DNA from: an uncultured Bdellovibrionales bacterium
Lineage (GTDB): Bacteria > Bdellovibrionota_C > UBA2361 > SZUA-149 > CAZDIO01
Assembly: GCA_964505555.1 (NCBI GenBank)
Contig: CAZDIO010000117.1
Location: 1,044-65,043 of the forward strand
Reading direction: 5' to 3'
Length of the DNA stretch: 64,000 bases
The notes under the pieces are model-generated. The model was given only the letters and a program-made list of their open reading frames with translations, was not told where the DNA came from and did no database searches. The translations under genes and the position numbers were made by a program. This document shows positions 2,907 to 59,686 of this stretch, piece after piece. Within the stretch, counting starts at the first letter, position 1, and every line of letters begins with the position of its first letter.

Positions 2907-2915
2907 CGAGGATTT

Positions 2916-3764: not shown

Positions 3765-3791
3765 CCTTAAAGTTACCACTTTGGAGAGATC

Positions 3792-4178: not shown

Positions 4179-4381
4179 ATCAACCTTCCAAACTCAACAT
4201 CATTCTTAAATACGATCCTAAGCTCGCAATAATCCTCACAGCGTTGGGAATAATGCCAGTATTTTATTTATTTTCATTTTTCTCTGTGTCTCTGCGCCTC
4301 TGTGGTTCAATAAAAAAGGCTTCAGAAAGATTGTAAACGCTCAAGATGATTATTTCATTAAGAGGGAGAGTTTTACAGAAA

Positions 4382-26634: not shown

Positions 26635-26840
26635 TACTCTCACCGCACCTTTAGAATCGGGGGAAGGATTTTTAACGCAGAGGGGGAATATTAATCTCTT
26701 TACCCCTGCGTTAAAAAACACTTACATTTGAACTGCTTACCCCCTCAAAAACAAGCCCACCACCCCCCACACCCCCCTCAAGAAACACTCCTAGGTAGTC
26801 GATTTCCTTATTGAAAACTAAAACGTGCAAAATCTTAACG

Positions 26841-43727: not shown

Positions 43728-44375
43728 TCAGAGAACATCGTATATCGCCCAGGGAACTTGAGACCTAAGTGCCCAATAGCGATCACCATACGACCAATGC
43801 CACCATTCAAATTCATAGTTTATAAATCCCTGACTGCTCATGGCTTGAATTAAAATCTGTCGGTTTGCTTGCGCTACGGATGAGATGTTCTCTGCATGAG
43901 TAAATCCGGCATTGTGATTTTGAATTGGAGTCTCGTCACTTGTAGAACCCATATCGAGCTCCTTTCCAAAACGATCAATGAGAGAAAGATCTATCGCCGA
44001 ACCCGTTGCATGCGGGGGAAACTCATCTGGGTGGGCGACATACAAAGCCGCATCATCTCTCAATGCTTGGTCATCTTTTTCTGGGAACTTCTCTTTGAGC
44101 GCTTGAAAATAGTGCTGATAAATCGTGCGTTGAATTGAGAGTGACCGATATCCCTCTTCAATGAGGAACTTCATTCCATCAGGCAACAAAACACTGGCCT
44201 GACAGAGTCGACTGGCCACGCTCTGGCGAATCAGACTAAATTGGGGGTTTGGCTCTTGCCTTTTTTTTGAAAAAGAAAACTTTTCGAACGTGCGTAAATC
44301 CACCAGGGGCTCATAACACTCTCGTATTGGCATTGAGAGCACGTGAGAATTTGACAGCAATACTCTGGTGGTCAT
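43728..44375 (-). CDS. ddpX: D-alanyl-D-alanine dipeptidase (VanX/DdpX, M15D family).
   Basis: The 215-aa product has the zinc-site motif HATGSAIDL (SxHxxGxAxD) and the C-terminal EWWHWSYGD (E-W-W-H-[FW] motif). Confidence 0.8.
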   Translation of the reverse strand: MTTRVLLSNSHVLSMPIRECYEPLVDLRTFEKFSFSKKRQEPNPQFSLIRQSVASRLCQASVLLPDGMKFLIEEGYRSLSIQRTIYQHYFQALKEKFPEKDDQALRDDAALYVAHPDEFPPHATGSAIDLSLIDRFGKELDMGSTSDETPIQNHNAGFTHAENISSVAQANRQILIQAMSSQGFINYEFEWWHWSYGDRYWALRSQVPWAIYDVL

Positions 44376-45121
44376 TACCCCTTCTTCTCTACTAGGTAAC
44401 AGGAGAAATGTTCGCGCTCTCCCTCAACGTTTACTAACCGAAGCTCACCAAAGCCCACCTCGATCATCTGTTGTTGAAGCTCAGAAAATGTGATCAACCG
44501 GGACGCACGCTCTACAAAATAAGAACTTTCACCAATTTGTAATTTAATTCTCCATATTCGCGTAGCATCTTCAAAACGAGCAATGATCGTTTCTTCAATT
44601 CTCACCTCGAGTCCTCCCACTTGAGCGCTAAAGTCACTGTTCATTATTGGATGAGTTTGGCTTTTCTCATTTGGAAGATCCAGGTAGAAACTCCCGTGAG
44701 GTTTGATACAGGCTGCAAAGCTTTGAAGAATGCTTTTTAACTTTTCATTTGTTACAACCGCCTGTTGACCATCTTCCCAGGTATCTGCATACATCAGGGA
44801 GTTTCCACGACAGATCAATAAATCAAACCGTTCGGGGAAGATGCTCCCGAGACTGCTCCAATGATGAACTCTGGGAACTACTGGCAATCCTTGTCGAGAG
44901 GCATTCTCCTCTAAACGCGTTAACATCTCCTTACTTGAATCACTGAGCTCGATTGCGTACCCTGCCTTGATTAAATCAAGACTTAAAAACCCAGTGCCCG
45001 CAGCACAGTCAAGAATATTACTCTTTCGAAAGGGAGAAAAAAGCCGATCAAAGCTCCGAAAGAGTTTGGGGCGATTATAAATCGCTTGTAAATACAGGTC
45101 ATAAAGTTCTGGAAAGCTCAC
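44375..45121 (-). CDS. Class I SAM-dependent methyltransferase.
   Basis: The 248-aa product has motif I ILDCAAGTGFLSLDL. Its stop overlaps the ddpX start. Confidence 0.7.
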   Translation of the reverse strand: MSFPELYDLYLQAIYNRPKLFRSFDRLFSPFRKSNILDCAAGTGFLSLDLIKAGYAIELSDSSKEMLTRLEENASRQGLPVVPRVHHWSSLGSIFPERFDLLICRGNSLMYADTWEDGQQAVVTNEKLKSILQSFAACIKPHGSFYLDLPNEKSQTHPIMNSDFSAQVGGLEVRIEETIIARFEDATRIWRIKLQIGESSYFVERASRLITFSELQQQMIEVGFGELRLVNVEGEREHFSCYLVEKKG

Positions 45122-45178
45122 CGTAATACCCTTGTCATTCTCTGCCTTCTTATCTTTATGAAAAACGGATTTAATATC

Positions 45179-46207
45179 TTATTTGATCTTCCTCGGAGGA
45201 TTAAGAATATTTCTAAATCCCGGGGTCCATTCATCATAATGAATCACAAGACTGTCAATTTTTCGAATCAATTTTGGAAACTCCTTGCGAAGCATCTCAA
45301 GAAGTTTTTCATAGGCAGAAAAACTTTCAATCACAATCTCTAGCTCAAGAGACCAGAGGTTTCGTAGAAAGTAGATAACTTGTGGAATATTCGATACGTA
45401 TTTGATGAATCGTTGATACTCTCGTTCTTCAAAGCTATGTACCTCGATCAAAGTTTTAAAATATGTAAGTCCTAGTTTTTTAAAGTCGAGATCAACTCGA
45501 TAGTGTAGCAAAATCCCTGCTTGCTCTAACTTCTGCATCCGCGCTCGCACAATCGCTGGAGTTGTGCGCAAACGGCTTGCAATTTCGGTTACAGGAATTC
45601 TTGCATCATCAACAAGCTCAGCAATGATATTATAGTCTACTGCTTTTAGATTTGCCGGGGTGACATCTTTGACATATTCAAGTGGGGGAGAACAATGTCC
45701 AGTAAGATAATTACTTGGATACTGGAGAACAACCACAGGCACGTAACCCTGAAGATCTACCACTACCGATCGAAAATCTGTGGTTAATTTTTCAATAACT
45801 TGAAACAGCTCACTATAATGTTGATAAAAAAGTCCGATGAGTAGATCCCAAGATCCAGAGGTGAGTCCATACCAATATACATTTCCAAGCTTTTTCAAAT
45901 AGCTAATTAGCTTCTCTCGCTCATCAGAGATATTAATCAGTTTGACGTGAATTTTATAAAGATGATAACCCATCTTTCCTGGACTAAAAGAGGTCCGAAA
46001 GCCCCGGATAACTCCGGCATCTAAAAGTCGGTGCAGATGATACTCCACCGTTTGTCGTGGCCGTCCAAGGCGCTCCGATATCGCCGGAAGCGAAGTTCGA
46101 CAGTCAAGCTCCAACACATGTAGCAGCTCTCGATCAAACGGCGTCAAAACTGCGTGCTGGAGTTCCTTAACTTTCATAGGGGAGACTATATCAAAATTGC
46201 CAACCAA
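45179..46207 (-). CDS. Tandem-duplicated Lrp/AsnC-family transcriptional regulator (two HTH_AsnC plus RAM-like halves in one polypeptide).
   Basis: The 342-aa product has two HTH regions: ...LDCRTSLPAISERLGRPRQTVEYHLHRLLDAGVIRGF and ...DDARIPVTEIASRLRTTPAIVRARMQKLEQAGIL. It is divergent from the ddl-fusion gene. Confidence 0.7.
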   Translation of the reverse strand: MVGNFDIVSPMKVKELQHAVLTPFDRELLHVLELDCRTSLPAISERLGRPRQTVEYHLHRLLDAGVIRGFRTSFSPGKMGYHLYKIHVKLINISDEREKLISYLKKLGNVYWYGLTSGSWDLLIGLFYQHYSELFQVIEKLTTDFRSVVVDLQGYVPVVVLQYPSNYLTGHCSPPLEYVKDVTPANLKAVDYNIIAELVDDARIPVTEIASRLRTTPAIVRARMQKLEQAGILLHYRVDLDFKKLGLTYFKTLIEVHSFEEREYQRFIKYVSNIPQVIYFLRNLWSLELEIVIESFSAYEKLLEMLRKEFPKLIRKIDSLVIHYDEWTPGFRNILNPPRKIK

Positions 46208-46382
46208 TGATATTCGGTCCGTTTTTAAGTAAAACTAAATAAATTCAATTAGTTAAACTACAAACGACCAATCCGATATTTAGCAATATTTAACAAATCT
46301 TGCCTTTTTAAATAACTTCTGCCAATATTCTTCTGGGCTGCTTTGGTGCTCCCATAGTCAAAAATAAGCGTCTTTTGAGAAA
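46208..46382. promoter_or_regulatory. AT-rich divergent intergenic region between the Lrp/AsnC regulator and the tandem Ddl-like ligase. Presumed promoters and operator.
   Basis: It is 175 bp and AT-rich. It has the classic divergent regulator/target architecture. No precise hexamers were assigned. Confidence 0.3.
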
Positions 46383-48803
46383 ATGATAAAGATTGCCATA
46401 CTCTGTGGAGGATCATCTGCCGAACGAGGGATCTCCCTCAACTCCGCTCGATCCGTCTACGACCATCTTCCTCGAACACAATTTGAAATCTCATTAGTCT
46501 ATTTTGATCTCCTACTCGAACCATATCAGATCACCCCAGCACAACTGTACTCAAATACACCTTCAGATTTTGATTTTAAACTACATCACGTAGCACACCC
46601 TCTCAGCAAGCAAGCCCTCGCGCAGTTACTGACCAATGTAGATCTAGTTTTTCCGCTCATTCATGGGCGGTTTGGCGAAGATGGTGAACTTCAAGCGATG
46701 CTTGAGAACTTAGGTTGTAACGTTCTGGGTCTTGATAGTCAGGCTTGTTTGCAAAGCTACGACAAAGCACTGGCACGAACACATCTGAGACAACTAGGAC
46801 TTTTCACCCTTCCCTACCTTCTCCTCAATAATACCAATGGCGCACTCAAAGAAGTAGAGAACTTCATGAGCCAATACAGCCTGGAAAAGATTGTCGTAAA
46901 GCCCTGTCGGGGAGGTTCAAGTATTGGGGTTGGCGTAGCACTTAATTCACAAGAAGCGGTAGCGCTCATTGAGGAAATACTGAGCAAAAACATTGACTCA
47001 CAAGCACTTGTTGAGCCCTACTGTGTCGGCCAAGAGTTTACTGTGATCGTTTTCCAAAACGATGTCGGCGAACCGGTACCTCTCGTTCCAACAGAGATTG
47101 AGTTATTAAATCGTGATCAACGGTCCATTTTTAGCTATCGCAGAAAGTATCTCCCTTCTCACCAGACGGTATATCATAGCCCACCACGCTTTTCGCCGAA
47201 GATCCTCTCAGAGATCAGCGCGCATGCAAAATCAGTCTTTCGCTTCTTTCAAATGCGGGATTTCGTAAGAATTGACGGTTGGGTTTTTCCGGATGGTCGC
47301 ATTCTTTTTTCTGACATAAACCCAATAAGCGGCATGGAACAAAATAGCTTTTTTTTCCAACAAACAGCACAACTGGGGCTCTCACATACTGAGGCACTTC
47401 AATTTCTCATCCGCAATGCCTGCAAACGTCGTGCTCTAAGAATTCCCCTCACTACCGAACTTCCTACTCAAAAACAGAAAATCCCCGTGCGCGTTATTTT
47501 TGGGGGCAATACTGCCGAGCGTCAAGTGTCATTGATGAGTGGTACAAATGTTTGGTTAAAACTTCGCGGATCAAACCAATATGAACCTACCCCCTACCTG
47601 CTTGGGACCGATGGCACTATTTGGCAATTACCGTACGCTTATTGTCTCTATCACACCGTTGAAGAAATCTCTGCTCTCTGCGAAAAGAGCATTGAACGGG
47701 AACAGAGGCTAGCACCTCTTCGCGCGCAGATTCTAGAAGATCTGTGTCTTCCTTCGCAAAAACCTCATGCAGAATTTCTTCCTCATCATTTAACACTCAC
47801 GGAGTTCCTCGCCTGTAAAGATCTCGTTTTTATTGCACTCCACGGAGGGGTCGGGGAAAATGGTATCTTTCAAGCTCAGCTTGCATCAGCAAATATTCCC
47901 TTCACCGGCTCAGCGGCACCGGCCTCTCAGCGATGCATGGATAAACTTGCAACTTCAGACACTTTGCAAGGTCTCAACTCTCTTGGAATACTTACCCCAA
48001 AAAAATTTAAACTCAATGTTCTTGAAATTGAACAAATAATTAAAAATGAAGCTCGCCTAGAAGCCCTTTGGAAACAACTACTCACTGAATTATCAAATAG
48101 TAAGGGAGAACAAACGATCATCATTAAACCGAACGATGATGGTTGCTCCGTAGGGGTGGCGCGCTTAGCCTCTGTGAAAGATTTGCAGCATTATTTACAA
48201 GCAATCATTGACAATCAAGAGGCCATATCTCCTGGGACCCTTCTTCTCCATGAAGAAATTATTGAAATGCCTTCATTCAAACCAGAACTGCTGCTCTGTG
48301 AAGAATATATCATTTGCGATCACGTTTGCATCGAGGGCACTCATATACAGTGGACCTCCCGCACTGACTGGATTGAAATCACAATGGGGGTTGTTGAGCG
48401 AAATGGCAAGATGCACTCTTTCCATCCAAGCCTCACCGTTGCTTCTGGGAATGTGTTGAGCGTAGAAGAAAAATTTCAAGGGGGCACGGGAGTAAATATC
48501 ACTCCACCTCCAGAGCAGTTTATTTCATTTGAAACGATCGAACTTGCAAAAAAGAGAATGGAGCTGGTTGCAGGGAGACTGGGCCTTCGTGGTTTTGCGC
48601 GAATTGATGCTTTTCTCCATCGTCACACCGGAGAATTAATAATTATCGAAGCAAACACGATTCCAGGGCTTACACCATCGACGGTAATTTACCATCAAGC
48701 TCTTGCTGAACCCCAGCCGGTAACTCCGAGAGATTTCCTTGAAGGAATTATTAGTGCCGCACAGATGAAGAGCGCTCCTGCGTTCGGATCAGAAGCGCGT
48801 TAG
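46383..48803 (+). CDS. Fusion of two complete D-alanine--D-alanine-ligase-like ATP-grasp modules (Ddl-Ddl tandem, 806 aa).
   Basis: Half 1 has the Ddl N-terminus MIKIAILCGGSSAERGISLNSA, then HGRFGEDGELQAMLE, KPCRGGSSIGV and RIDGWVFPDGRILFSDINPISGM. Half 2 (from about aa 390) has VRVIFGGNTAERQVSLMSG, HGGVGENGIFQAQLA, IKPNDDGCSVGVA and ARIDAFLHRHTGELIIIEANTIPGLT. Confidence 0.8.
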   Translation: MIKIAILCGGSSAERGISLNSARSVYDHLPRTQFEISLVYFDLLLEPYQITPAQLYSNTPSDFDFKLHHVAHPLSKQALAQLLTNVDLVFPLIHGRFGEDGELQAMLENLGCNVLGLDSQACLQSYDKALARTHLRQLGLFTLPYLLLNNTNGALKEVENFMSQYSLEKIVVKPCRGGSSIGVGVALNSQEAVALIEEILSKNIDSQALVEPYCVGQEFTVIVFQNDVGEPVPLVPTEIELLNRDQRSIFSYRRKYLPSHQTVYHSPPRFSPKILSEISAHAKSVFRFFQMRDFVRIDGWVFPDGRILFSDINPISGMEQNSFFFQQTAQLGLSHTEALQFLIRNACKRRALRIPLTTELPTQKQKIPVRVIFGGNTAERQVSLMSGTNVWLKLRGSNQYEPTPYLLGTDGTIWQLPYAYCLYHTVEEISALCEKSIEREQRLAPLRAQILEDLCLPSQKPHAEFLPHHLTLTEFLACKDLVFIALHGGVGENGIFQAQLASANIPFTGSAAPASQRCMDKLATSDTLQGLNSLGILTPKKFKLNVLEIEQIIKNEARLEALWKQLLTELSNSKGEQTIIIKPNDDGCSVGVARLASVKDLQHYLQAIIDNQEAISPGTLLLHEEIIEMPSFKPELLLCEEYIICDHVCIEGTHIQWTSRTDWIEITMGVVERNGKMHSFHPSLTVASGNVLSVEEKFQGGTGVNITPPPEQFISFETIELAKKRMELVAGRLGLRGFARIDAFLHRHTGELIIIEANTIPGLTPSTVIYHQALAEPQPVTPRDFLEGIISAAQMKSAPAFGSEAR

Positions 48804-49103: not shown

Positions 49104-51308
49104 TCAAGAGTGAATTGAGATTTTAGGAAGCCAGTTCAATCCCCGAGGAAGATACCAATTCCACTTACCAAGAAGCTTTAGGCTCGCTGGAAGCAGCAAC
49201 GATCGAACCACCGTCGCATCAAGAAAGACGGCCACCGCCAACCCAATTCCCAGCTGCTTCATCACCGGAAGCTCTAGCGTGGCAATAATCGAAAAAACAG
49301 AAACCATAATCAATGCTGCGCTGGTGATCGTTCGTGATGTCGTTAGGAGTGCCCTTTTAATCGCAACATCGGTCTCCTTCCCAGACAACACCTCTTCGCG
49401 CACCCGTGAGAGGAGAAAAACATGATAATCCATCGAGAGACCAAACAAAATTGCAAACAACAGTGCCGGAACAAAACTTTCAATCACCCCGTATTGTAAA
49501 TCATCAAACACATTCCTTTTAAACACCTCTTGAAACACGAGCACCATGACTCCAAATGCAGCGCCAGTGGAAAGTAGGTTCAAAAGTATGGCCTTCAATG
49601 GCACCACAATGGAACGAAAAGCAATCAATAAAAACATCATGCTCAGTCCGAGAACTGCGGCATACACTCGCCAAGTTTTTTTGCCGTACCGCTCATCGTC
49701 GTCAACTGCATACGGAAGTGTGCCACTAAGAGTGGCCTCGACCCCCGCTGCGTCATACAATTCCGGAATCATTATATGACGAATATCTTCAACAGCTTTG
49801 TGAGCGGCAGCATCATTGATATTCCCTGGCACTACAAAACTGTAGCGCACTACAGAATTATCCTTAGACCGGTCAACGCGCAGCGGGCCACGAAGTTCAG
49901 ATATTTCAGATATACGTTTTAGAAACCGTGGCACAGTTCCATCTTGTTCCCGAGCCGACAGATCTGCACCCCTAAGAATTACAGATAAATCTGCGCCAAC
50001 CAAATCAGGAAACGCCACTTGTATCTTGCGAAATGCCTGAGTGAGCTGCAATGAATATGGGAGGGTTTGTGGTTGTACGGTGCTGCCCAAATGGATCCTC
50101 GTTGAAAAATAACAAAACAAAAGGAGAAGCCCGCCCATAACAACCATAATAGATTTGGGGTGGCTGATACTTAATTGCAACAAACCACCAATGGTCGATT
50201 CGTCACGACTTTCAATCCGCCGACGAATTCGACCACATTCAATTACTGGCCCAAGAATCAAAAGCAATAAAGGAAGTATGGTAACACAACTAAAAACGGT
50301 AATGATTGTTGCCGCGATCGAAACGGCAGCCATCGATGTCAGTATCGTATCCTGCATTAGCAAAAGCCCAGAGAGAGAAAGCGCCACGGTCAATCCACTT
50401 AAAACTACCGCTCGACCTGCGGTTCTCCGAGCAATGGTAATTGCCTCTGGGTACGAGCGCCCGCTTTGGACCTCCTCTCGCATCCGACTAATGATGAAGA
50501 GAGAATAATCCACCCCAATCGCCAAAACCAATAAGACCACAAGCTGCGAAGCTGTCGCGCTGACTGGTCCAACAAGTGTGCTAAAAATTGCGGTGACTCC
50601 AAGAGCTGCTCCAAGACTAACAAGTGCAAATAACAACGGAATCAAAGCCGCGACAACAGAACTAAAGGTCCAGATAAGCACTAACAGAGAAAGAGGAAGA
50701 GTAAAGATTAACGATCTATCGAGATCCCGGTTAATTAAAGCAAAAATCTCATTATCCCCCAACCCTTTACTGATATAGCTGATTTTAAAATCAGGGAAGT
50801 TTTCTAACCACTCTGTAATCTCCTTTGGAAATAACGCCAACGCTTGCGCGGACCGATCCACCGAAACATCTGTTTCGGCGATAAACAAGAGGCTCCTTTG
50901 ATCAGCAGAGGTAAAGATCGCGTCATTGAGTGAATTATGCCCGGCGGTCTGAACATTGAGAAAGAGCGCTGACTTTTCCTGCTCAGCAGTATTTTTAGTA
51001 GCGCTCTTAGATCCCTGCAAAAAACTCAGTAACGAATCACGCGCCTGGATGAATTTAATATCGCTGACATCTTCGCTCGGATGATCGAGCATTACTAGCA
51101 CCTGATCGCGTGGTGGAATTCCCGCTGCAATCGCTAGTTGTTCGCCGTGATTCTCAGATAACGCCAGGTGAGAGGAAGGCCCAGGAAGCACCGTTTTAAA
51201 ACCAAGCCAGAGCCCGCCTGCAAACAGCAAACATGAACCTAGAAGCCAAAAACTGATCCATCTAACGACACTACGTCCAGATCTGGTACTACGATCTGCC
51301 TCAATCAC
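49104..51308 (-). CDS. MMPL/RND-superfamily lipid exporter (HpnN/MmpL-like).
   Basis: The 734-aa product has the 2 x (TM + large periplasmic loop + 5 TM) topology. The conserved motifs are LAIGVDYSLFIISRMREE and LSMDYHVFLLSRVREE. It has a GTG start. Confidence 0.8.
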   Translation of the reverse strand: MIEADRSTRSGRSVVRWISFWLLGSCLLFAGGLWLGFKTVLPGPSSHLALSENHGEQLAIAAGIPPRDQVLVMLDHPSEDVSDIKFIQARDSLLSFLQGSKSATKNTAEQEKSALFLNVQTAGHNSLNDAIFTSADQRSLLFIAETDVSVDRSAQALALFPKEITEWLENFPDFKISYISKGLGDNEIFALINRDLDRSLIFTLPLSLLVLIWTFSSVVAALIPLLFALVSLGAALGVTAIFSTLVGPVSATASQLVVLLVLAIGVDYSLFIISRMREEVQSGRSYPEAITIARRTAGRAVVLSGLTVALSLSGLLLMQDTILTSMAAVSIAATIITVFSCVTILPLLLLILGPVIECGRIRRRIESRDESTIGGLLQLSISHPKSIMVVMGGLLLLFCYFSTRIHLGSTVQPQTLPYSLQLTQAFRKIQVAFPDLVGADLSVILRGADLSAREQDGTVPRFLKRISEISELRGPLRVDRSKDNSVVRYSFVVPGNINDAAAHKAVEDIRHIMIPELYDAAGVEATLSGTLPYAVDDDERYGKKTWRVYAAVLGLSMMFLLIAFRSIVVPLKAILLNLLSTGAAFGVMVLVFQEVFKRNVFDDLQYGVIESFVPALLFAILFGLSMDYHVFLLSRVREEVLSGKETDVAIKRALLTTSRTITSAALIMVSVFSIIATLELPVMKQLGIGLAVAVFLDATVVRSLLLPASLKLLGKWNWYLPRGLNWLPKISIHS

Positions 51309-51883
51309 TTTGTTGCCCCTACTTCAGCAATACAATTGCGATCGAGCGGTCTGAGCAGATCTTCAAGAAAGAATGCCGACAGTTGCGCACGATTCTCGAG
51401 TTTTGATTTCTGATATAAAGAGGTCGCTTGCTGACGCACCGTTCGTTCACTACGTCCCCGAATCTCTGCAATTTCATTATGAGAAAACCCCTTAAGAATT
51501 AGCAATCCGATATCCCGCTCTGCTTCGGTCAAGTTCCATTCCTCAAACTGTCGATCGATCGCCTGACCAAGTCCCGCCAATAACTGAGCAGCGTCGCTCT
51601 TCCATTTAATGGCATCGGCTCGCGATGTAATAATTTCACCCTTCAAAAGTCGGGTAACCCGGTCATGCTGTTTCAATATATTTCTCCAGAGAAATACCGA
51701 TCCGGTCAACGAGGCGAAGATGATTGCAGCTTCAATTAAAAGGTGCGGCAGCTCAATACCGGAGAGTGAATCTTCAACCATATCGAATATTGCAAATAGA
51801 GCGACTGCCAATAGCGCGCCCGCAGCTACTTTGGAGTTCTTCTGACCTCCAGATTCAGCACTTTCATATCCGTCAAACGTCAT
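51305..51883 (-). CDS. LuxR-family HTH regulator with N-terminal transmembrane segments.
   Basis: The 192-aa product has the C-terminal LuxR HTH LTEAERDIGLLILKGFSHNEIAEIRGRSERTVRQQATSLYQKSKL and two N-terminal hydrophobic helices. Its stop overlaps the MMPL start. Confidence 0.7.
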   Translation of the reverse strand: MTFDGYESAESGGQKNSKVAAGALLAVALFAIFDMVEDSLSGIELPHLLIEAAIIFASLTGSVFLWRNILKQHDRVTRLLKGEIITSRADAIKWKSDAAQLLAGLGQAIDRQFEEWNLTEAERDIGLLILKGFSHNEIAEIRGRSERTVRQQATSLYQKSKLENRAQLSAFFLEDLLRPLDRNCIAEVGATK

Positions 51884-52059
51884 ATCAAAGGTCCCTAAGT
51901 CTTATTAAATACTGATTGAATTCTATATCCGACCAAACGCCGGTTGTCTTTATTACACCGCCAATGCACTCTCTCGTCTAATAGCAATCTGTTTTACAAC
52001 CTGCTTTAATAGCTTAGCAGCTAAGTCAGATTTGCACATTATCGACAGTTTTTCTAACT

Positions 52060-53289
52060 ATGAAATTCAAGTTTGACGTAATTGTTATTGGCGCATCGTT
52101 ATCGGGATCCTCTGCGGCGCTTCATCTGGCTGATGCCGGAAGGACTATCTGTTTGATCGATAAAGCTAACTTCCCTCGGCCAAAGTCTTGCGGTGAAGGC
52201 CTCTCTCCACAGGGAGCGGCGATCATTCGAACTCTGGGACTCTCCAAGGAGCTCACCCAGGCACCACACCAACCTCTCTGTGGCTATACGATACACTGGG
52301 GCCAAACGATTGTCTCAATTCCGTATGCACAAAAAAATTATTCTCTTTCAGATTGCACACCAGAAGAGACAGTAGACAATACCGTGGAGTTCGGCCTGGG
52401 CATCAAACGCCAAATTCTTGATGAGATGCTAGTAACCAAATGCCGTGATTCAAAACAGATCACTTTTTTTGATAAAAGTCCGGTAAGATCTATCACCTCA
52501 TTATCGGATGGTTTTGATGTCGAGATCTCGACAAACAAATTTCACGCCCGACGACTTGTCATTGCTGATGGTGCAAATTCTCCTTCATCTCGTCTGCTAG
52601 CTATTCCATCAACCGGAAGAACCTCTCCAAAAAAATCTGCTTTTACTTGCGGCTACCGCGGATCGTGGTCTAAGCCAATTGGGCATGTTCATATCCTAAA
52701 CTACACTGGTATCCGGCTCTTTATCACTCCCGTTGGCAACAATGAAGTCTCGGTTGCGCTCCTTGCTGCCCCCCACGCTGCTCGCATCCTCAGCTCAGCA
52801 ACCAAACGCGATCTTTTAATCTCCAATGCTTTTCAGGTAATTGGATTTACCCCCGGAGAGCTCCTTCAAAGCGGGGGATCGAGTAATATTGGTCATCACC
52901 GCAGACCCGCGCAGATCGGTGGCGCGTATCTTGTTGGAGATGCTGTTGAGCAACTTGATCCGGTTGGTGGCATGGGCATGACTCATGCTTTATTCTCAGG
53001 GAAATTTGCCGCAGAGGCACTCGCCTCAGACCTCGCGGGAGCGTTCAGCCCAAAAGAAGCCGGGGCCAGGTATCAAGCCCAGCGTGAAGCTGCTGTTATT
53101 CCGCTTCGTGGCTTTACCCGAATGGTGGATCATGTATTTTTTCTTTCAGAATATCTCCCACTTATACGACCCTTACTGGGATCAGCAATGAGCGTCTCAG
53201 CCAGCCGTGAAGTTCATCAATTAAAACGCATTTTGCCTTTTTCTGGCCTCACCGCAAAATGTCTTCTCTATGGAGCTGGATACCTATGA
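52060..53289 (+). CDS. FAD-dependent oxidoreductase (geranylgeranyl-reductase/FixC-like flavoprotein; candidate hydroxylase or reductase).
   Basis: The 409-aa product has the FAD motif DVIVIGASLSGSSAALHLA and ...KSCGEGLSP.... Confidence 0.7.
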   Translation: MKFKFDVIVIGASLSGSSAALHLADAGRTICLIDKANFPRPKSCGEGLSPQGAAIIRTLGLSKELTQAPHQPLCGYTIHWGQTIVSIPYAQKNYSLSDCTPEETVDNTVEFGLGIKRQILDEMLVTKCRDSKQITFFDKSPVRSITSLSDGFDVEISTNKFHARRLVIADGANSPSSRLLAIPSTGRTSPKKSAFTCGYRGSWSKPIGHVHILNYTGIRLFITPVGNNEVSVALLAAPHAARILSSATKRDLLISNAFQVIGFTPGELLQSGGSSNIGHHRRPAQIGGAYLVGDAVEQLDPVGGMGMTHALFSGKFAAEALASDLAGAFSPKEAGARYQAQREAAVIPLRGFTRMVDHVFFLSEYLPLIRPLLGSAMSVSASREVHQLKRILPFSGLTAKCLLYGAGYL

Positions 53290-53945
53290 AAACATTTTTA
53301 CGATTAGTGTTTTTTCTTACCTTGCTTTTGATTCTCAACTTCCCGCTTCCTTTTGGCAAGGCTGAGAATCTTCCGTCGCCAACAGACTCTCCCTGGTTTC
53401 TCCCCATTGAGTTAAACGACAACAACACCAAAATCTCGTTTGAGGTCGATTCGACCTGGCACCGGATTCATGGCAAGACTTCTGGCATTCATGGACGCTT
53501 ATGGCTCGAAGAGTCAAACGATCCCGGATCAATTCGTGGCACTATTTCAATTCCCGTCGGCCAGTTTGATACGAACAATTCAAGTCGTGATTCGCGACTC
53601 CGTGAAGTGATGAAAGCAGAAAAGTTCTCTGAAGTTACCTTCTCCCTTAATTCGGTTGAAAATATCTGCTCCCCTCAATCACTAATTGGAGATGATTCCT
53701 GCCTTGGAAACGCTACCGGATCATTATCGATTGAAGACCACAAAGAATTGGTCCCTGTGAATTTTTCAGTTTCGCGTTCTCCTACCGGTTTTGTAATCAT
53801 TGGAACAGCAATCTTTAGCTGGCGCTCTTATCCAATCGTCGATCCCTCAATTCTCATTGCCAAGCTTGATGACCAGGTAACGATCTCTTTTACTGTTAAC
53901 ACGATCTCTCGTCTTTCGACTTCTAACCCAATAAATAAAAATTAG
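53286..53945 (+). CDS. YceI-like (polyisoprenoid/lipid-binding) periplasmic protein.
   Basis: It has a signal peptide (MKTFLRLVFFLTLLLIL) and the pattern ...FEVDSTWHRIHGKTSGIHGRLWL...NNSSRDSRLREVMKAEKF..VTF. Its start overlaps the upstream stop (ATGA). Confidence 0.65.
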   Translation: MKTFLRLVFFLTLLLILNFPLPFGKAENLPSPTDSPWFLPIELNDNNTKISFEVDSTWHRIHGKTSGIHGRLWLEESNDPGSIRGTISIPVGQFDTNNSSRDSRLREVMKAEKFSEVTFSLNSVENICSPQSLIGDDSCLGNATGSLSIEDHKELVPVNFSVSRSPTGFVIIGTAIFSWRSYPIVDPSILIAKLDDQVTISFTVNTISRLSTSNPINKN

Positions 53946-53956
53946 GATGGTTTGAA

Positions 53957-55000
53957 ATGAGTTTTCTCTCTTCTTGCTCAATAAGTATTCCAAAATATCA
54001 ATACGGACTTGAGGAGCTGCGCGCCTCTGGAAAGGTGTGGCTTCGTGGGGACACCGATCGTGAACTGCTATTTGATCGACTCCTCTCCTCTTCAAATGTA
54101 TTACAACGCGGCTTTTCCATTCCAATGGAGAAGATCCTAGAACTCGGGGGTCTCCGTGAACGGAGTCAACTTTTTGAACAATTGGCGCCAGAGCTCGCAC
54201 TTCCTGCAATAGAAAACGCGCTGATCGCAGCAGAAAAAGATCCTTCGGAGATCGACTGTTTGATCTTCACCTCCTGTTCCGTGCCCGCAATTCCTAGTGT
54301 CGATGCCGCACTTGTTAGGCGCGTGGGATTTTCACCACATATTCGTCGCCTTCCAATTTTTCAGCACGGTTGTGCCGGTGGAATAGTCGGACTGGAGCTG
54401 GCGCACGAACTTGCCACAAACGGACGAAACGTTCTTCTCGTATCCGTTGAATTATGTTCGTTGCTGTTTCATTATGGAGATGTGCGCACCGGGCAATTAG
54501 TCGGGGGCGCGTTGTTTTCCGATGGCGCAGCGGCAGTTGTTATAACCCCTGACGTTGGAGCGATTGAGATTCTTGCCAGCAGCTCCTGCTTGCTTCCAGA
54601 TTCACGCCACCTGATGGGGTATGAACTTCAAGATGATGGTCTGCATTTACTCCTTGATCGCGAGTTACCTCGTGCGCTGGCCGACCATATTCCGAAGCTT
54701 ACAAGAGCATTCCTAGAAAGAGAAAAGCTGACTCTCGATGACATTCCATGGTGGTTGTTTCATCCTGGAGGGCCAAAGGTTTTATCAAGCTTACAGCGCG
54801 GCCTAAATCTGTCTGATGCTAGCTGCCGTTTTGCAAGCGAAGTTCTCTCGACCCACGGGAACATGTCTTCAGCAACAATACTTTTTGTGCTCAATCGATT
54901 TCTCACTGAAGGAGTTGCCAAACCTGGAGAGCTCGTCGTGCTCTGCGGTGTTGGCCCGGGGCTTACTGTTGAGCTCGTTCTCTGTCGAGTGAACAAATAA
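53957..55000 (+). CDS. Type III polyketide synthase (chalcone/stilbene-synthase superfamily).
   Basis: The 347-aa product has the catalytic Cys in HGCAGG, His in WLFHPGGPKVL and Asn in GNMSSATILFVL. Confidence 0.9.
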   Translation: MSFLSSCSISIPKYQYGLEELRASGKVWLRGDTDRELLFDRLLSSSNVLQRGFSIPMEKILELGGLRERSQLFEQLAPELALPAIENALIAAEKDPSEIDCLIFTSCSVPAIPSVDAALVRRVGFSPHIRRLPIFQHGCAGGIVGLELAHELATNGRNVLLVSVELCSLLFHYGDVRTGQLVGGALFSDGAAAVVITPDVGAIEILASSSCLLPDSRHLMGYELQDDGLHLLLDRELPRALADHIPKLTRAFLEREKLTLDDIPWWLFHPGGPKVLSSLQRGLNLSDASCRFASEVLSTHGNMSSATILFVLNRFLTEGVAKPGELVVLCGVGPGLTVELVLCRVNK

Positions 55001-55012
55001 CAAGACGATCAG

Positions 55013-55714
55013 ATGCCCATAAACGATCTTTCCATTTATCAAGATCACGCCGCGGAGTGGTGGAATCCAACAGATCCCCATTTTCGTTCACTGATTTCGG
55101 TTAATCGGTTTCGACTAGAGCTTATGAATCGCTGGGTTGGGTCACAAGAAGGAGCAACCGTCGTAGATATTGGTTGCGGGGGTGGATTGATTTCAGTCCC
55201 CCTCGATCATGCTGGGGCTCGAATTATCGGTATTGATATTAGCGATCGAAGTTTGGCTGTGGCCAAAACGCGCTCCTCTTTGCAAGCAACATACCTTGCA
55301 GGAGACGCTCGAAGCATTCCCCTTGCTGACGAATCTGCCGATTTGGTTGTTCTCGCTGATGTGCTTGATCATGTTCAGGATTATCACTTAGTAATTACTG
55401 AAGGGGCGCGAATACTTCGTTCCGGAGGACGTCTTTTTCTGACAACACTCAATCGTTCCTGGTTTTCTTCACTGCTTACTGTTTTTATTGCTGAAAATCT
55501 ACGCTTAATCCCTCCTGGAACCCATGATCCCCGAATGTTTATTAAGCCAAAAGAGCTAAAAACGATAGCGAGACGTGAATCTCTTTTTCTTCAGCAACTG
55601 ACGGGAGGATTTCCAAAAATAGCACCGACATTGCGGAACTGGGCAATTGAATTACGTGAAAGCCGCTCAACAGCAGTTTTTTATGCAATGCTTTTACAAA
55701 AACAGCAGGCCTGA
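55013..55714 (+). CDS. UbiG-like class I SAM-dependent O-methyltransferase.
   Basis: The 233-aa product has an N-terminal AAEWWNPTD...F..L...N..R region and motif I VVDIGCGGGLIS. Confidence 0.75.
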   Translation: MPINDLSIYQDHAAEWWNPTDPHFRSLISVNRFRLELMNRWVGSQEGATVVDIGCGGGLISVPLDHAGARIIGIDISDRSLAVAKTRSSLQATYLAGDARSIPLADESADLVVLADVLDHVQDYHLVITEGARILRSGGRLFLTTLNRSWFSSLLTVFIAENLRLIPPGTHDPRMFIKPKELKTIARRESLFLQQLTGGFPKIAPTLRNWAIELRESRSTAVFYAMLLQKQQA

Positions 55715-55715
55715 C

Positions 55716-56459
55716 ATGAATCGAAAACGACTTGTCGTTCTTGCTTACGGACTTTGCACCCATCTTACCTTTTTGCTTGCCGTTGGATTGATGTGCTTCT
55801 CACTCCATAATGGCTTGAGTGGGCCTGGTGCCATGTTTTCCATCCCTCGATATATTTGGGATCTCGCTCTCTTGCTTCAATTTCCGATCATTCATTCCTT
55901 ATTGTTAACAAAGCAGGGACGCTCGATCCTTTCTGTGCGCCATCGCTCACAAACAACAAGTAATCTTACAACGACCACATTTGCACTCGTTGCATCATTA
56001 CAATTGATCCTCGTTTTTAGTTTATGGCTGCCAACTGGGGTCATGCTCTGGGAGCCAAGTCCTGGGGTGCGCCATCTGTTTGATCTGGGTTTCATTCTAT
56101 CTTGGCTTTTACTTGGCAAATCGATGTGGGATAGCGATATCACCATTCAAACGGGGATCAAAGGGTGGCTATCTGTATTTAAAGGAAAGAAGCCGGTCTA
56201 TCGGGGATTTCCCTCCGGCGGACTGTATCGCTTCTGTCGCCAACCGATTTATCTTTCCTATCTCTTGATCCTCTGGACGGGTCCTCATTGGACGCTGGAT
56301 CGAATCTCTGTGGCTCTGGTTTGGGGAGCATACTGTATCATTGGAGCAATGATGAAGGAGCGTAGATTTTTAGAAATTTTTGGTGGTGACTTTCTGCGTT
56401 ATTGTGAGCGGGTTCCTTTCATGTTCCCTATTCCACTTCGGGTGCACACTCGAAAATAA
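55716..56459 (+). CDS. Membrane methyltransferase of the ICMT/PEMT family.
   Basis: The product has multiple TM helices and the C-terminal motif ...FCRQPIYLSYLLILWTG...E...L...FG..F..YC..VPFMFP. The start was moved to ATG 55716, because the track ORF overlaps the upstream gene. Confidence 0.65.
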   Translation: MNRKRLVVLAYGLCTHLTFLLAVGLMCFSLHNGLSGPGAMFSIPRYIWDLALLLQFPIIHSLLLTKQGRSILSVRHRSQTTSNLTTTTFALVASLQLILVFSLWLPTGVMLWEPSPGVRHLFDLGFILSWLLLGKSMWDSDITIQTGIKGWLSVFKGKKPVYRGFPSGGLYRFCRQPIYLSYLLILWTGPHWTLDRISVALVWGAYCIIGAMMKERRFLEIFGGDFLRYCERVPFMFPIPLRVHTRK

Positions 56460-56492: not shown

Positions 56493-59126
56493 TCATCTAC
56501 TCATTACTTGGGCATTTTCTATAAGGCGGATAAACTCCTGCCTCAAACCGTCAGCGTCCTCGCCTTTACCGCTTCTTAGCACCGGTAAAACATCTTTGAG
56601 AGTATATGAACTTGCATGCTTACTTCCTCTGAGAATCTGCGCGGCGTAAACCACCCCAGCAGCAAATCGAAAATCAACTGTGCTGTTTTGTAAGTCTCTT
56701 TTTATCTGATCTGCTTGAATGGGAAACTCAAGTTGCTCAGAGTGCTCTTTATTTGGCTCCTTAAATCGAATTTTTACAAACGCAACTTCATTTATATCTT
56801 CAGCAATCGGTTCTCGAAGCTCATTTTCGGCGGGCTGCTCTTCCTGTACCTTCTTTTGGTAGCGAAGTCCTTCATCGAAACTTTCGTTTGGTAACTTTTC
56901 TCCAACAAGAACAATCTCATAGAGCGCCGTCACAGTGTGGCCTGAGCCAACCTCTCCAGCATCAATTGCATCATTTTTAAAATCTCTTGCCTGAAGCTTT
57001 CGATTGTCATACCCCAGCAACCGATAGGCCTTAACCACTTTTGGATTAAACTCAATTTGGAGTTTGACGTCTTTTGCTACCGTTTCCATGGTTTGGGTAA
57101 GTTGTTCAACAAATACTTTTCGAGCCTCATCAAAGGAGTCGAAGTAAAAATAATTTCCGTTTCCCCGATTGGCAAGTTGCTCCAGGTTTTTCTCGTTATA
57201 GTTCCCCTCTCCGACACCGATCGTGGTTAGGGTAATTCCTGATCGTCTCTTTGTTTCGATCATCTGCATTAAGTGATCAAACTGATACGTCCCAACGTTA
57301 AAATCCCCATCGGTAACGATAATGACACGGTTTACTCCCTCATTGGTTCGATTTTGTGAGGCGATATCATAGGCAAGATCTAGTCCGGCCCCCCCGTTTG
57401 TTCCCCCATTAGCAGAGAGCCCTCGAATTACTGAAAGAATCCGCTCCTTCTCACTACCCCGAGTAGAAGAAAGGATCACCTGGGCATTGTTGGCAAACGT
57501 TACGATTGAGACTCTATCGGTAGCTCTCATCTCTTTAACAAGGATCTCCAGACTTCGCTTTAATAGTCCAAGTTTGTTGTCTGCCATCATCGAACCAGAG
57601 GTATCGATGAGAAACACTAAATTCCATCCACTATCTTCATTTCGAACCACCTCTTTTGCTTTCACTCCGAGCTTTAAGAGGTATTTTCCTGGCGAAAAAG
57701 GAGAAGGTGCGATCTCAGAATTTACTGCAAACGGTTTTTCATGTTGTGAAGGATAGTTATACGTAAAGGCATTAACAAACTCCTCCACCCGCACTGAATC
57801 TGCTGGAGGAAGTTTCCCCATCGAGAGAAAGCGGCGTGCATTTGCAAAGCTTCCTGTATCGACATCGATACTAAACGTCGAGAGGGGTTGGCTAGTTACA
57901 AGTTCTTGTGGATTTTCATCGTAGTGACCGTAAACCTCTTGCTCACTCGGCACAGAAGGAACCGGAGGAATTGGAAAGCTCCGCCGGTAGTAATCATGTG
58001 GAGACGGCTCAACTATCGCTCCTCCTTCCCCACCATATCCTGCTGTCAATTCATTAGCAGGAGGACTGTTTTTTTCATCCGTTGACTCTGCAATCCATTT
58101 CTTTCCTTCTAATCTGTATGATTTACTCCCGGCTCCATCACGATCTTTTAACACCAATACTCCGTCGGAAGGTTGCCGTTGTTCGGCACTTGGCGCAAAA
58201 CCTGTAAGCATGTCCATCCCTCCAATCGATGGGTTGTCTGCCGAAAGCCCAGCCGTAGCCTGAGCAGCCTGGCGCTGACCTTCCTCGTCTCCCACTAAAG
58301 AAAGACTCAGCTTACCGCTTGCTTCTGCCAATTGCAGACGTTGAGCATCCCGTTCGTTTACAAGGAGTGTCACCTTGCTAGAGTCCTCCTTTTTTTGTTC
58401 AGTGTTCTTACCTTCTGAACCAGCCGAGAGAACCTTTGCTGAACGGACAATGGTGGTAATTTTCTGATTCTTATCGCGATCGGTATAGGAGTACATAACA
58501 TCTGCCCGCGTGCCGGGCTTTGAAAATCCTTCCGCTCCCGCCGTAGCACCAAGATCGACGGTAATCGCACGGTGCCCCGGGGGAATTACTGGTGCAACCG
58601 GAAGAGTTGCTTCTTTTTCAGTTACAGCGTCCGGACTCTGATGAACATCTGATTCTGTCTTATTTTTGAGAAGATCTTTACTTTTCTCCCTCTCATCTCT
58701 CTCTTTCTTCTCTACCGGAACTTGAACCCCAGAGGAAACAACAGATTTTCGAATAATCTCTGGACTTGTTACTAACTCCCTTTGAGCAAGAAAAAGAGCG
58801 ATACATGCCGTAGCTGCAACAGCGAGAGGGATTGGAAAGCCCTTTTTTGCTTTCTCTAGTATTCTCGAGAAAAGCTCTCTCCGACGCAAACTCTCACTCT
58901 CTAGCGCCTCCATCACCTGCACCCGAAATTCAGGCCCTACGGTGCGCACCTCTTCTGAAACAAACCGCTCCAATTGTAAGAGTTTTTTATACTGCGCCAG
59001 GGAGTCTCGACACTTTTCACACTCACCAAGATGCGCTTCGACCTTCTTTCGAAACTCCTCAGGAAGAGTCTCTTCAATAAGTCCTAAGAAACTTTCTTCA
59101 ACTACTTTGTGTCTCATCGCATACAC
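56493..59126 (-). CDS. Anti-sigma factor fused to a von Willebrand factor A (VWA) domain protein. Order is zinc-finger anti-sigma N-terminus, TM, long linker, VWA.
   Basis: The 877-aa product has the N-terminal HLGECEKCRD zinc-binding anti-sigma motif, a TM helix (IPLAVAATACIALFL), and the VWA MIDAS motif VFLIDTSGSM. It has a GTG start overlapping the sigma gene. Confidence 0.7.
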   Translation of the reverse strand: MYAMRHKVVEESFLGLIEETLPEEFRKKVEAHLGECEKCRDSLAQYKKLLQLERFVSEEVRTVGPEFRVQVMEALESESLRRRELFSRILEKAKKGFPIPLAVAATACIALFLAQRELVTSPEIIRKSVVSSGVQVPVEKKERDEREKSKDLLKNKTESDVHQSPDAVTEKEATLPVAPVIPPGHRAITVDLGATAGAEGFSKPGTRADVMYSYTDRDKNQKITTIVRSAKVLSAGSEGKNTEQKKEDSSKVTLLVNERDAQRLQLAEASGKLSLSLVGDEEGQRQAAQATAGLSADNPSIGGMDMLTGFAPSAEQRQPSDGVLVLKDRDGAGSKSYRLEGKKWIAESTDEKNSPPANELTAGYGGEGGAIVEPSPHDYYRRSFPIPPVPSVPSEQEVYGHYDENPQELVTSQPLSTFSIDVDTGSFANARRFLSMGKLPPADSVRVEEFVNAFTYNYPSQHEKPFAVNSEIAPSPFSPGKYLLKLGVKAKEVVRNEDSGWNLVFLIDTSGSMMADNKLGLLKRSLEILVKEMRATDRVSIVTFANNAQVILSSTRGSEKERILSVIRGLSANGGTNGGAGLDLAYDIASQNRTNEGVNRVIIVTDGDFNVGTYQFDHLMQMIETKRRSGITLTTIGVGEGNYNEKNLEQLANRGNGNYFYFDSFDEARKVFVEQLTQTMETVAKDVKLQIEFNPKVVKAYRLLGYDNRKLQARDFKNDAIDAGEVGSGHTVTALYEIVLVGEKLPNESFDEGLRYQKKVQEEQPAENELREPIAEDINEVAFVKIRFKEPNKEHSEQLEFPIQADQIKRDLQNSTVDFRFAAGVVYAAQILRGSKHASSYTLKDVLPVLRSGKGEDADGLRQEFIRLIENAQVMSR

Positions 59127-59686
59127 CCCACAAGTTGGTCTTTTAGGAGAAGTCGTGCTGTGTTTAACCTCGAGCGCACCGTTCCTACCGGAATTCCTAA
59201 AATAGTTGCCGCCTCCTCGTATTTTTTGTTTTCAAACGCACAGAGCACCAAGGCTTCCCGATACTTCGGTTTTAAATTCGCCACAGCAGTTCGTAACTCG
59301 TCAATTAACTCCTGGTCATAAGGACGATCCTCTGCTTCAGCTATCCTCTCACCATGTTTATCTTCAAACGTTGTCATCTTCATCTGAGTCTTGTACCGCT
59401 TTGATGAAAAATAAGAGTTCGTTACATTGAGCGTAATTCGTATCAACCATGTTGAAAAACTTGCTTCGAAACGAAATGAAGAAAGATTAAGATAGGCTTT
59501 AAGAAACACCTCTTGGGCAAGCTCCTTTGCGGTCTGCTCATCTCCAAGCTGTCTGACGATCATCGCAAAGACCTTTCCTTGATGAAGCTCCACCAAATGG
59601 CGAAACTCCTCCTTCTCTCCAGAGATAACTCTCCGGATGATCTCAGGTTCGGCTGCGCTTTCATCCCCGATTGAGGCTATCTCCAT
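59114..59686 (-). CDS. ECF (sigma-70 family, group 4) RNA polymerase sigma factor.
   Basis: The 190-aa product has region-2 and region-4 patterns (...LAQEVFLKAY..., ...ILGIPVGTVRSRL...). It is translationally coupled to the anti-sigma gene. Confidence 0.85.
   Translation of the reverse strand: MEIASIGDESAAEPEIIRRVISGEKEEFRHLVELHQGKVFAMIVRQLGDEQTAKELAQEVFLKAYLNLSSFRFEASFSTWLIRITLNVTNSYFSSKRYKTQMKMTTFEDKHGERIAEAEDRPYDQELIDELRTAVANLKPKYREALVLCAFENKKYEEAATILGIPVGTVRSRLNTARLLLKDQLVGCMR

Follow-up and report, generated by a model that had tools for sequence, protein, structure and literature searches.

A type III polyketide synthase gene cluster paired with a YceI-family lipocalin in an uncultured Bdellovibrionales bacterium

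How does a polyketide lipid leave the inner membrane of a diderm bacterium? Operons for alkylresorcinols and polyketide quinones are known in bacteria, but the exit of their products from the inner membrane of diderms is not. The question is raised by a locus in a 64,000-nucleotide stretch of DNA, referred to below as the window, from an uncultured Bdellovibrionales bacterium (GenBank assembly GCA_964505555.1, contig CAZDIO010000117.1, positions 1,044 to 65,043). At positions 49104 to 56459 of the window, we confirmed seven genes arranged as two tight divergent operons (Table 1). They encode a type III polyketide synthase (PKS), a flavin adenine dinucleotide (FAD)-dependent oxidoreductase, a UbiG-like methyltransferase, a membrane methyltransferase, a YceI-family lipocalin, an MMPL-family pump, and a LuxR-type regulator; all seven stand where the first-pass annotation of this DNA had placed them, and the catalytic triad of the PKS is intact. 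Judged from sequence, the cluster is a variant of the srs/pkq/hid/bps type III PKS operons for phenolic lipids, and its product is probably a methylated phenolic or quinone lipid. What is new relative to those operons is the replacement of ICMT by UbiG-like and MddA-like enzymes and the coupling to YceI, MMPL, and a membrane LuxR protein. Of the leads that it offers, the most valuable is that YceI accompanies the PKS pathway almost without exception and is in some cases fused to enzymes of that pathway.

Pairing of YceI with the synthase in related genomes

We collected 59 nonredundant loci whose PKS was at least 40% identical to that of the window (the clade loci), anchored them on the PKS, and scored them with family hidden Markov models (HMMs). 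The outgroup comprised 16 loci from Alphaproteobacteria, Desulfobacterales, and one Ignavibacteriales metagenome-assembled genome, at 30 to 36% PKS identity. YceI was encoded directly upstream of the PKS, on the same strand, in 53 of the 55 clade loci that could be evaluated and in 0 of the 16 outgroup loci. The flavoprotein was present in 40 of the 59 clade loci, the MddA-like methyltransferase in 32, ICMT (PF04140, 86 bits) in 29, LuxR in 13, MMPL in 12, and the UbiG-like methyltransferase in 8; ICMT was also found in 15 of the 16 outgroup loci. The MMPL count covers two subfamilies, both detected by family HMMs, the second of which is missed by tblastn and phmmer searches with the window protein. 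In the reverse test, anchored on YceI among metagenome contigs, a PKS gene neighbored YceI in all 16 loci that continued beyond it; in 15 the PKS gene followed immediately, and in the remaining one, locus L108, it stood two genes upstream. The latter (1324 to 5351 of its contig) is itself divergent, with LuxR facing away from a flavoprotein-PKS-ICMT-YceI series in which YceI follows ICMT, and it combines LuxR with ICMT, unlike the other 59 loci.

Among species representatives, the PKS relatives were metagenome-assembled Bdellovibrionota, labeled "Bdellovibrionales" or "Deltaproteobacteria," with at most 49% identity; closer relatives, at 82% and 65%, were found only on metagenome contigs. The relatives of the window's HslU were likewise metagenome-assembled Bdellovibrionota (63 to 73% identity). 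Two architectures account for the arrangement of the clade genes. In architecture A, that of the window and its tree neighbors, LuxR is divergent from a flavoprotein-YceI-PKS series that may continue with the UbiG-like and membrane methyltransferases, and the position of MMPL varies. In architecture B, a divergent membrane methyltransferase gene faces YceI-PKS-ICMT-flavoprotein, which is the srsABC order preceded by YceI. The window holds the fullest gene set, and LuxR and MMPL mark the sub-lineage that contains it.

Outside the cluster set, no gene family occurred in more than 5 of 52 clustered loci. None of the window's flanking genes was present in any related locus, and the flanks were unrelated even at 82% PKS identity. 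Because the grouping persists in homologues with as little as 40% PKS identity, and between differing flanks, it lies far beyond chance. The first-pass annotation had named, beforehand, co-conservation of the neighboring genes with the PKS as a point on which its reading would stand or fall; such co-conservation is what we observed, for YceI in the counts given above and for LuxR and MMPL within the window sub-lineage, including the 82% and 65% relatives. The notion that the genes are chance neighbors or a recent insertion without a joint function is effectively refuted by these comparative data. The GC content is even over the whole region, and no comparative result speaks for chance neighbors; co-conservation over deep divergence while flanks turn over, gene fusions, and overlapping start and stop codons speak against them.

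The fusions were found in a profile search with the YceI subfamily, which has the signature FEVDSTWH...RD...DPSILIAKL plus a cysteine pair and returned 152 cluster representatives at an E value of ≤1e-30. Five top matches contain a second cluster domain: P0284, P0347, and P0371 (full length) and P0286 (partial) consist of the flavoprotein, a hydrophobic segment, and YceI, while P0275 consists of the MddA-like methyltransferase, a hydrophobic segment, and YceI. These fusions are predicted proteins from assemblies, and they are probably real, since several representatives are less than 50% identical to one another. They indicate a direct functional link of YceI with the tailoring enzymes and imply that a lipocalin in the periplasm is anchored to an enzyme of the cytoplasm or the membrane.

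The window YceI passes as a lipocalin by its Pfam score, above the cut-off, and by its eight-stranded barrel fold. Its AlphaFold model (predicted local distance difference test [pLDDT] score of 85) matched the YceI/BcnA lipocalins 3q34, 1wub, 5ixh, and 1y0g in Foldseek with a probability of 1.0 and TM-scores of 0.72 to 0.79, at a sequence identity of merely 12 to 19%. The N terminus forms a signal-like helix and two cysteines are invariant in the subfamily; together, these features support secretion. The ligands of the matched lipocalins are long-tailed molecules headed by a phenol or quinone, and octaprenylphenol or ubiquinone-8 has been found inside YceI/BcnA barrels (PMC9113575). Placed among BcnA/LcoA, Escherichia coli YceI, TT1927b, and GNA1030, which share its fold, are secreted, and have long-chain phenols or quinones as known ligands, the window protein nonetheless differs from BcnA/LcoA in being a distinct subfamily linked to a PKS instead of cytochrome b561.

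What might the lipocalin do with such a ligand? With the same biosynthesis, YceI could act as the periplasmic holder of a polyketide quinol that serves as a redox cofactor or as an antioxidant quenching lipid peroxyl radicals, in the manner of BcnA-ubiquinone-8 with cytochrome b561 (LcoA). In its favor, ubiquinone-8 or octaprenylphenol copurifies with YceI lipocalins, and the BcnA/LcoA pair guards lipids against peroxidation (PMC9113575). A bound cofactor would also match the one-to-one stoichiometry of the fusions between YceI and tailoring enzymes, and most clade loci have YceI without MMPL. However, cytochrome b561 or another reductase partner was found in none of the loci clustered, and the pump is retained in the window lineage, which suggests bulk lipid movement. 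We regard a cofactor or antioxidant role with no part in export as unlikely, and favor a lipocalin that binds the lipid released by the pump.

Full-text literature searches for a link of YceI or lipocalins to type III PKSs or alkylresorcinols found none, and searches for Bdellovibrio alkylresorcinols returned nothing relevant. The first-pass annotation had held that the combination of YceI, MMPL, and membrane LuxR is absent from the described loci. This is essentially right for the combination as a whole; the part concerning the binder was slightly overstated, given a single precedent, the lipid/isoprenoid-binding protein gene in the operon of "Saltatorellus ferox" Poly30 (PMC10896814).

Synthase, tailoring enzymes, and probable product

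As shown in Table 1, the minus-strand operon consists of the LuxR and MMPL genes and the plus-strand operon of the FAD oxidoreductase, YceI, PKS, UbiG-like methyltransferase, and membrane methyltransferase genes. Intergenic distances inside either operon range from -4 to +12 nt, those of the plus-strand genes being -4, 11, 12, and 1 nt in order, and the MMPL start overlaps the LuxR stop by 3 nt (51306 to 51308). The starts of YceI (219 amino acids [aa]) and the membrane methyltransferase (247 aa) are supported by exact-sequence look-up. An Rfam scan of the 64-kb window gave zero matches. By gene order, the PKS, methyltransferase, and FAD oxidoreductase share one five-gene operon, as in operons of the srsABC/pkqABC/hidABC type.

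Table 1. Features of the cluster and of the rest of the window (positions are those of the window)
Feature	Length	Position	Strand	Model match or content
MMPL-family RND transporter	734 aa	49104-51308	-	PF03176, 248 bits
GerE/LuxR-type regulator	192 aa	51305-51883	-	GerE helix-turn-helix, 27.3 bits (cut-off 23.5)
Divergent promoter region	176 nt	51884-52059		Spacer separating both operons
Palindrome, candidate operator		52013-52025		Perfect 6-1-6
FAD-dependent oxidoreductase	409 aa	52060-53289	+	PF01494, 55 bits, full length
YceI-family lipocalin	219 aa	53286-53945	+	PF04264, 55.8 bits (cut-off 23.7)
Type III PKS	347 aa	53957-55000	+	Chal_sti_synt_N/_C, 71.9/75.9 bits (cut-off 27)
UbiG-like class I S-adenosylmethionine-dependent O-methyltransferase	233 aa	55013-55714	+	TIGR01983, 140.5 bits (cut-off 102.95)
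Polytopic membrane methyltransferase, MddA-like	247 aa	55716-56459	+	NF045656, 87 bits (cut-off 270)
ECF sigma factor and anti-sigma-like protein	877 aa (anti-sigma-like)	56493-59686	-	zf-HC2, RcpC/CpaB, VWA, YfbK_C (anti-sigma-like)
Tandem D-Ala-D-Ala ligase protein and neighbors	806 aa (ligase)	43728-48803		Two tandem ligase units
Tc/Rhs-type toxin-like protein	2069 aa	11757-17966	-	SpvB, TcdB-middle, FG-GAP, RHS-repeat
Transposase-like protein	327 aa	18556-19539	-	REP-associated tyrosine transposases, 50 bits (below cut-off)
Acyl-CoA dehydrogenase		21078-22226		
Acyl-CoA ligase		23212-25098		
Kinase-ankyrin protein		26811-28982	+	Ser/Thr protein kinase, several ankyrin repeats

The PKS is a type III enzyme by its Pfam models, its triad, and its thiolase-type fold. 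Cys139, His269, and Asn302 align with the triads of Pks11 and THNS and are invariant across 37 homologues. The structure model (pLDDT of 91) has a TM-score of 0.93 to both Pks11 and THNS, so that the fold search does not separate the two. Reference motifs were taken from the supplement of PMC8086630. HPGGPK (as in SrsA, Pks11, and ArsB) and HGNMSS (as in BpsA) are of the alkyl type, where RppA has HAGGPR and GNIAS; over the full RppA/THNS signature, LGCAA/GLFGD/FHF(Q/L)L/HAGGPR/(Y/R)GNIAS, the window PKS reads HGCAG/ALFSD/LHLLL/HPGGPK/HGNMSS. Homologues of the PKS are annotated by JGI as "alkylresorcinol/alkylpyrone synthase." An alignment of 74 PKSs also gave a signature of the YceI-linked clade, TSC(S/T)V, MGY(D/E), and xHL(R/L)L; at its Cys, Tyr, and His positions, THNS has the same residues and the ICMT-linked outgroup has T, W, and G/K. 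This clade-specific active-site signature (Cys107, Tyr222, and His230 in the window PKS) suggests a chemistry possibly different from that of SrsA and Pks11.

The FAD oxidoreductase is of the geranylgeranyl-reductase/UbiH-like type (TIGR02032, 99 bits, below the cut-off of 159). Its PDB matches include halogenases; a halogenase identity was rejected, since the sequence has no WxWxIP motif and carries the reductase-type FPRxKxCG as FPRPKSCGEGL. In the 82% relative (L002/L003, 8891 to 9360), decay and an internal deletion have left only a remnant of the FAD oxidoreductase gene, and there is no UbiG-like gene; the remainder of the cluster is intact. The tailoring steps are therefore modular. The UbiG-like gene directly follows the PKS in 6 of its 8 carrier loci, and likewise in L086 and L103 of the YceI-anchored set. 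The enzyme shares about 51% identity with "S. ferox" Mtr1 over a stretch of 82 aa, and it is probably a dedicated paralogue, being embedded in the PKS cluster in related loci and homologous to Mtr1.

The membrane methyltransferase had been annotated at first pass as an ICMT-family enzyme, and that assignment had to be revised. The protein gave no match to PF04140 (ICMT) and only weak Pfam matches to NnrU, DUF1295, and PEMT (E value of 0.049 for PEMT); the model that it matched best was that of MddA (Table 1). In hhalign, its similarity to the ICMT family of the sister loci had a probability of 70% and an E value of 4e-5 over 84 columns, in the C-terminal GxYRxxRxPxY region. The enzyme is thus classed from its sequence as MddA-like and is probably a distant ICMT/PEMT superfamily relative. 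Its identity to "S. ferox" Mtr2 is 30 to 46%; the "S. ferox" identities were computed from sequences machine-read from a PDF and containing errors.

Comparison with characterized systems places the cluster within a broader family of operons. In srsABC of Streptomyces griseus and pkqABC of Mycobacterium smegmatis and Streptomyces, too, the PKS gene shares its operon with genes for a methyltransferase and a FAD oxidoreductase, and their order, PKS-ICMT-FAD oxidoreductase, is identical in the sister loci of the window. The srs-like logic proposed at first pass therefore holds. The window methyltransferases are homologous to those of an operon whose PKS makes alkylresorcinols. Compared with srsABC and pkqABC, the window has UbiG-like and MddA-like enzymes in place of the ICMT methyltransferase and further encodes a probably secreted YceI protein, an MMPL pump, and a LuxR protein of the membrane, in a Gram-negative host. 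The hidABC operon (hierridin B, Cyanobium) and the planctomycetal mtr-fdo-t3pks operons hold the same set of methyltransferase, FAD oxidoreductase, and alkylresorcinol-forming PKS, and the window flavoprotein shares with G. maris Fdo an FPRxKxCG-type motif, in a weak match (23% over 125 aa); those operons differ in gene order and PKS clade (about 27% identity) and have no binder, pump, or regulator. bpsAB (Bacillus subtilis) and arsABCD (Azotobacter vinelandii) are type III PKS routes to alkylpyrones and alkylresorcinols for envelope or cyst lipids. Their PKS-ICMT pair is kept in the outgroup and sister loci, and the HGNMSS motif is identical to that of BpsA, whereas the window has neither an ICMT gene nor dedicated type I fatty-acid synthases such as ArsA and ArsD. 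To our knowledge, the bpsAB and arsABCD systems are without YceI, MMPL, and LuxR.

The nearest parallel to the methyltransferases is the pentacistronic operon of "S. ferox" Poly30, which encodes a lipoprotein, a lipid/isoprenoid-binding protein, Mtr1, Mtr2, and the type III PKS Poly30_13920; this PKS made C15, C17, and C17:1 alkylresorcinols in Corynebacterium (PMC10896814). Both window methyltransferases are homologous to Mtr1 and Mtr2, and a gene for a lipid-binding protein is present there as well, mentioned in passing. The "S. ferox" PKS, on the other hand, belongs to another clade, with Trp in place of Tyr222, and no MMPL, LuxR, or FAD enzyme is reported for that operon.

A polyketide quinone could also serve as an alternative respiratory electron carrier within the inner membrane, like the product of PkqABC, with YceI and MMPL there only for homeostasis. 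Taken together, the PKS, methyltransferase, and FAD oxidoreductase make up the same set as pkqABC (PMC9927152, PMC8730385), and a UbiG-type methyltransferase is typical of quinone biosynthesis; yet an inner-membrane carrier would need neither a near-obligate secreted binder nor a pump, and the flavoprotein is dispensable, being a pseudogene in the closest relative. This makes the respiratory role improbable. For a phenolic lipid speak the srsABC-like synteny of the sister loci, the PKS-ICMT pair of the outgroup, the membrane-embedded methyltransferases, and the long-tunnel lipocalin, and we consider it quite likely that the PKS product is a long-chain phenolic.

Several observations weigh against this assignment. 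The PKS is about equally far from its best solved relatives, Pks11 (34% identity) and THNS (31%), and shares only about 30% identity with the "S. ferox" PKS. A neighbor-joining tree and the identities to four reference sequences (34%, 31%, ∼30%, and ∼27%) did not resolve its placement, the references being Pks11 and THNS rebuilt from PDB alignments and two error-prone machine-read published sequences. Cys107, Tyr222, and His230 are as in THNS/RppA (Cys106, Tyr224, and the His of FHF in THNS). At the Tyr222 position, all 57 clade members scored have Tyr, and the ICMT-linked outgroup and Pks11 have Trp. Trp281 of ArsB is reported as favoring resorcinol formation; the window PKS has Tyr222 where ArsB and PkqA have the reported Trp, an equivalence drawn from the spacing to the catalytic His. 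Moreover, Mtr1 and Mtr2 of "S. ferox" gave no identified modification in C. glutamicum (PMC10896814), the hydroxylase role of the FAD enzyme is assumed, as its best score is to a reductase family and below the cut-off, and the canonical ICMT partner was not matched anywhere in the 64-kb window. On the export side, relatives of the MMPL protein also transport nonlipid aromatic polyketides (the ActII model was matched), and export is not universal, because LuxR and MMPL each occur in a minority of the clade loci.

Nor does the cluster contain a starter-supplying enzyme. The acyl-CoA ligase and dehydrogenase elsewhere in the window, offered at first pass as a source of starter units, lie 27 to 31 kb away with unrelated housekeeping genes between, and as pathway genes they were rejected: a ligase occurs near the cluster in 1 of the 59 related loci and a dehydrogenase in 0 of 59. 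In the Desulfobacterales outgroup loci L074 and L080, PKS-ICMT is followed by an AMP-dependent ligase, a different, starter-supplying architecture; in L080, the ligase is followed in turn by an amine-oxidase-like flavoprotein and a type I PKS ketosynthase. The predicted product is the weakest point of the assignment.

The alignment of Cys107 and Tyr222 with Cys106 and Tyr224 of THNS keeps alive another explanation, namely that an RppA/PhlD-like PKS makes a malonyl-only aromatic of the tetrahydroxynaphthalene or phloroglucinol type. Once hydroxylated and methylated, this compound would leave through the pump as a soluble pigment or antibiotic. His230 adds to this match, THNS is as close as Pks11, and the MMPL protein matches the ActII exporter model. 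HPGGPK and GNMSS, however, are not of the RppA type, and both Phe residues of FHF are replaced. The partners of RppA are a P450 or a cupin, whereas those of the window PKS are membrane-embedded methyltransferases and a long-tunnel lipocalin, and homologous methyltransferases accompany a proven alkylresorcinol synthase. We therefore give a soluble pigment only a slim chance and retain the long-chain phenolic.

Pump, regulator, and neighboring genes

The MMPL protein belongs to the MMPL/RND family by its Pfam score, its polytopic nature, and charged pairs in transmembrane helices 4 and 10 (TM4 and TM10). A crude hydropathy scan gave at least 10 hydrophobic helices, and Asp-Tyr pairs (D267-Y268 and D627-Y628) lie in helices equivalent to TM4 and TM10. 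Such Asp-Tyr pairs form the proton relay of MmpL3. Domain-level matches to the MmpL3, ActII, and HAE3 models were all below the cut-off, and the scores against specific exporter models fell short for MmpL3 (203 versus 1400), HpnN (48 versus 752), and BstA (38 versus 1400). The gene is kept at varying positions of the cluster in its 12 related loci. A pump of this family is likewise encoded beside lipid biosynthesis genes in the HpnN (hopanoids), MmpL3/MmpL7, and BstABC (sterols) systems, and BstABC also has a periplasmic binder; the window differs from these in substrate and in its partner protein, YceI, with model scores far below the cut-offs.

The regulator has its GerE helix-turn-helix at residues 117 to 168 and hydrophobic helices at residues 19 to 37 and 48 to 66, and "membrane-anchored LuxR," the wording of the first-pass annotation, is a fair description of it. 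The helix pair, together with a D..ED...G....H...E motif, occurs in 11 of 13 family members, and the gene is divergent from the biosynthetic operon in 11 of its 13 carrier loci. Against the LIC13292 family model NF047608, the protein scored 73 bits, below the cut-off of 200. The spacer contains a candidate operator, CTTAGCaGCTAAG, which is a perfect 6-1-6 palindrome located 35 nt upstream of where the flavoprotein gene starts. As a conserved operator it was rejected, and its role is speculative, because it is not conserved in the 82% relative. A strong sigma-70 match was not found in the 176-nt spacer.

Further features of the window are listed in Table 1. An extracytoplasmic function (ECF) sigma factor and an anti-sigma-like protein adjoin the cluster. 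On the other side, the 806-aa protein made of two tandem D-Ala-D-Ala ligase units is accompanied by a VanX-like D-Ala-D-Ala dipeptidase, a methyltransferase, and a double-helix-turn-helix AsnC-type regulator, possibly a van-like or peptidoglycan-remodeling set. Because none of the related loci has them, the ECF sigma/anti-sigma pair and the D-Ala-D-Ala ligase (Ddl) genes were rejected as cluster members. Elsewhere lie a large protein that resembles a Tc/Rhs-type toxin, a Ser/Thr protein kinase fused to several ankyrin repeats, and a protein with a weak match to REP-associated tyrosine transposases.

Proposed route and its meaning for the Bdellovibrionota

We consider it fairly probable that the seven genes form a self-contained route to a phenolic or quinone membrane lipid in a Bdellovibrionota-like Gram-negative bacterium. 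At the inner membrane, the PKS would extend a fatty-acyl starter with malonyl units and cyclize it to an alkylresorcinol- or alkylpyrone-type head group. By analogy with srsABC, pkqABC, and hidABC, the ring would then be hydroxylated by the FAD oxidoreductase and methylated by the UbiG-like and MddA-like enzymes, so that the end product is an alkyl-(hydro)quinone with methoxy groups or a phenol resembling hierridin. The MMPL pump may extract this lipid from the inner membrane. In the periplasm, the probably secreted YceI may bind the lipid and either pass it on to the outer envelope or retain it in a redox-active role. The two-helix LuxR protein, presumably cotranscribed with the pump, would control the divergent promoters, probably in response to the lipid or to membrane state.

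Several parts of this picture are direct observations: what the genes encode, how they are arranged in operons, the near-obligate association between YceI and the PKS, and the fusions of YceI to two tailoring enzymes. Beyond them, we advance a more tentative proposal, one that we hold to be arguable but short of probable: the YceI subfamily could be a dedicated periplasmic partner of a type III PKS pathway and, with MMPL and LuxR, part of a route, the first of its kind to be described, by which a phenolic or quinone lipid of polyketide origin is made, exported, and sensed in the envelope of a Gram-negative bacterium.

YceI lipocalins occur widely, and what they bind and do in nature is debated. 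The near-obligate pairing and the fusions yield a testable hypothesis, namely that YceI carries the PKS product. If true, this would be the first genetically defined ligand source for a YceI subfamily, and the polyketide lipid would belong to the envelope, or to the redox lipids of the periplasm, in the Bdellovibrionota, most of which are uncultured. A group of uncultured Bdellovibrionota that is abundant in fresh water is thereby flagged as candidate producers of an uncharacterized phenolic lipid.

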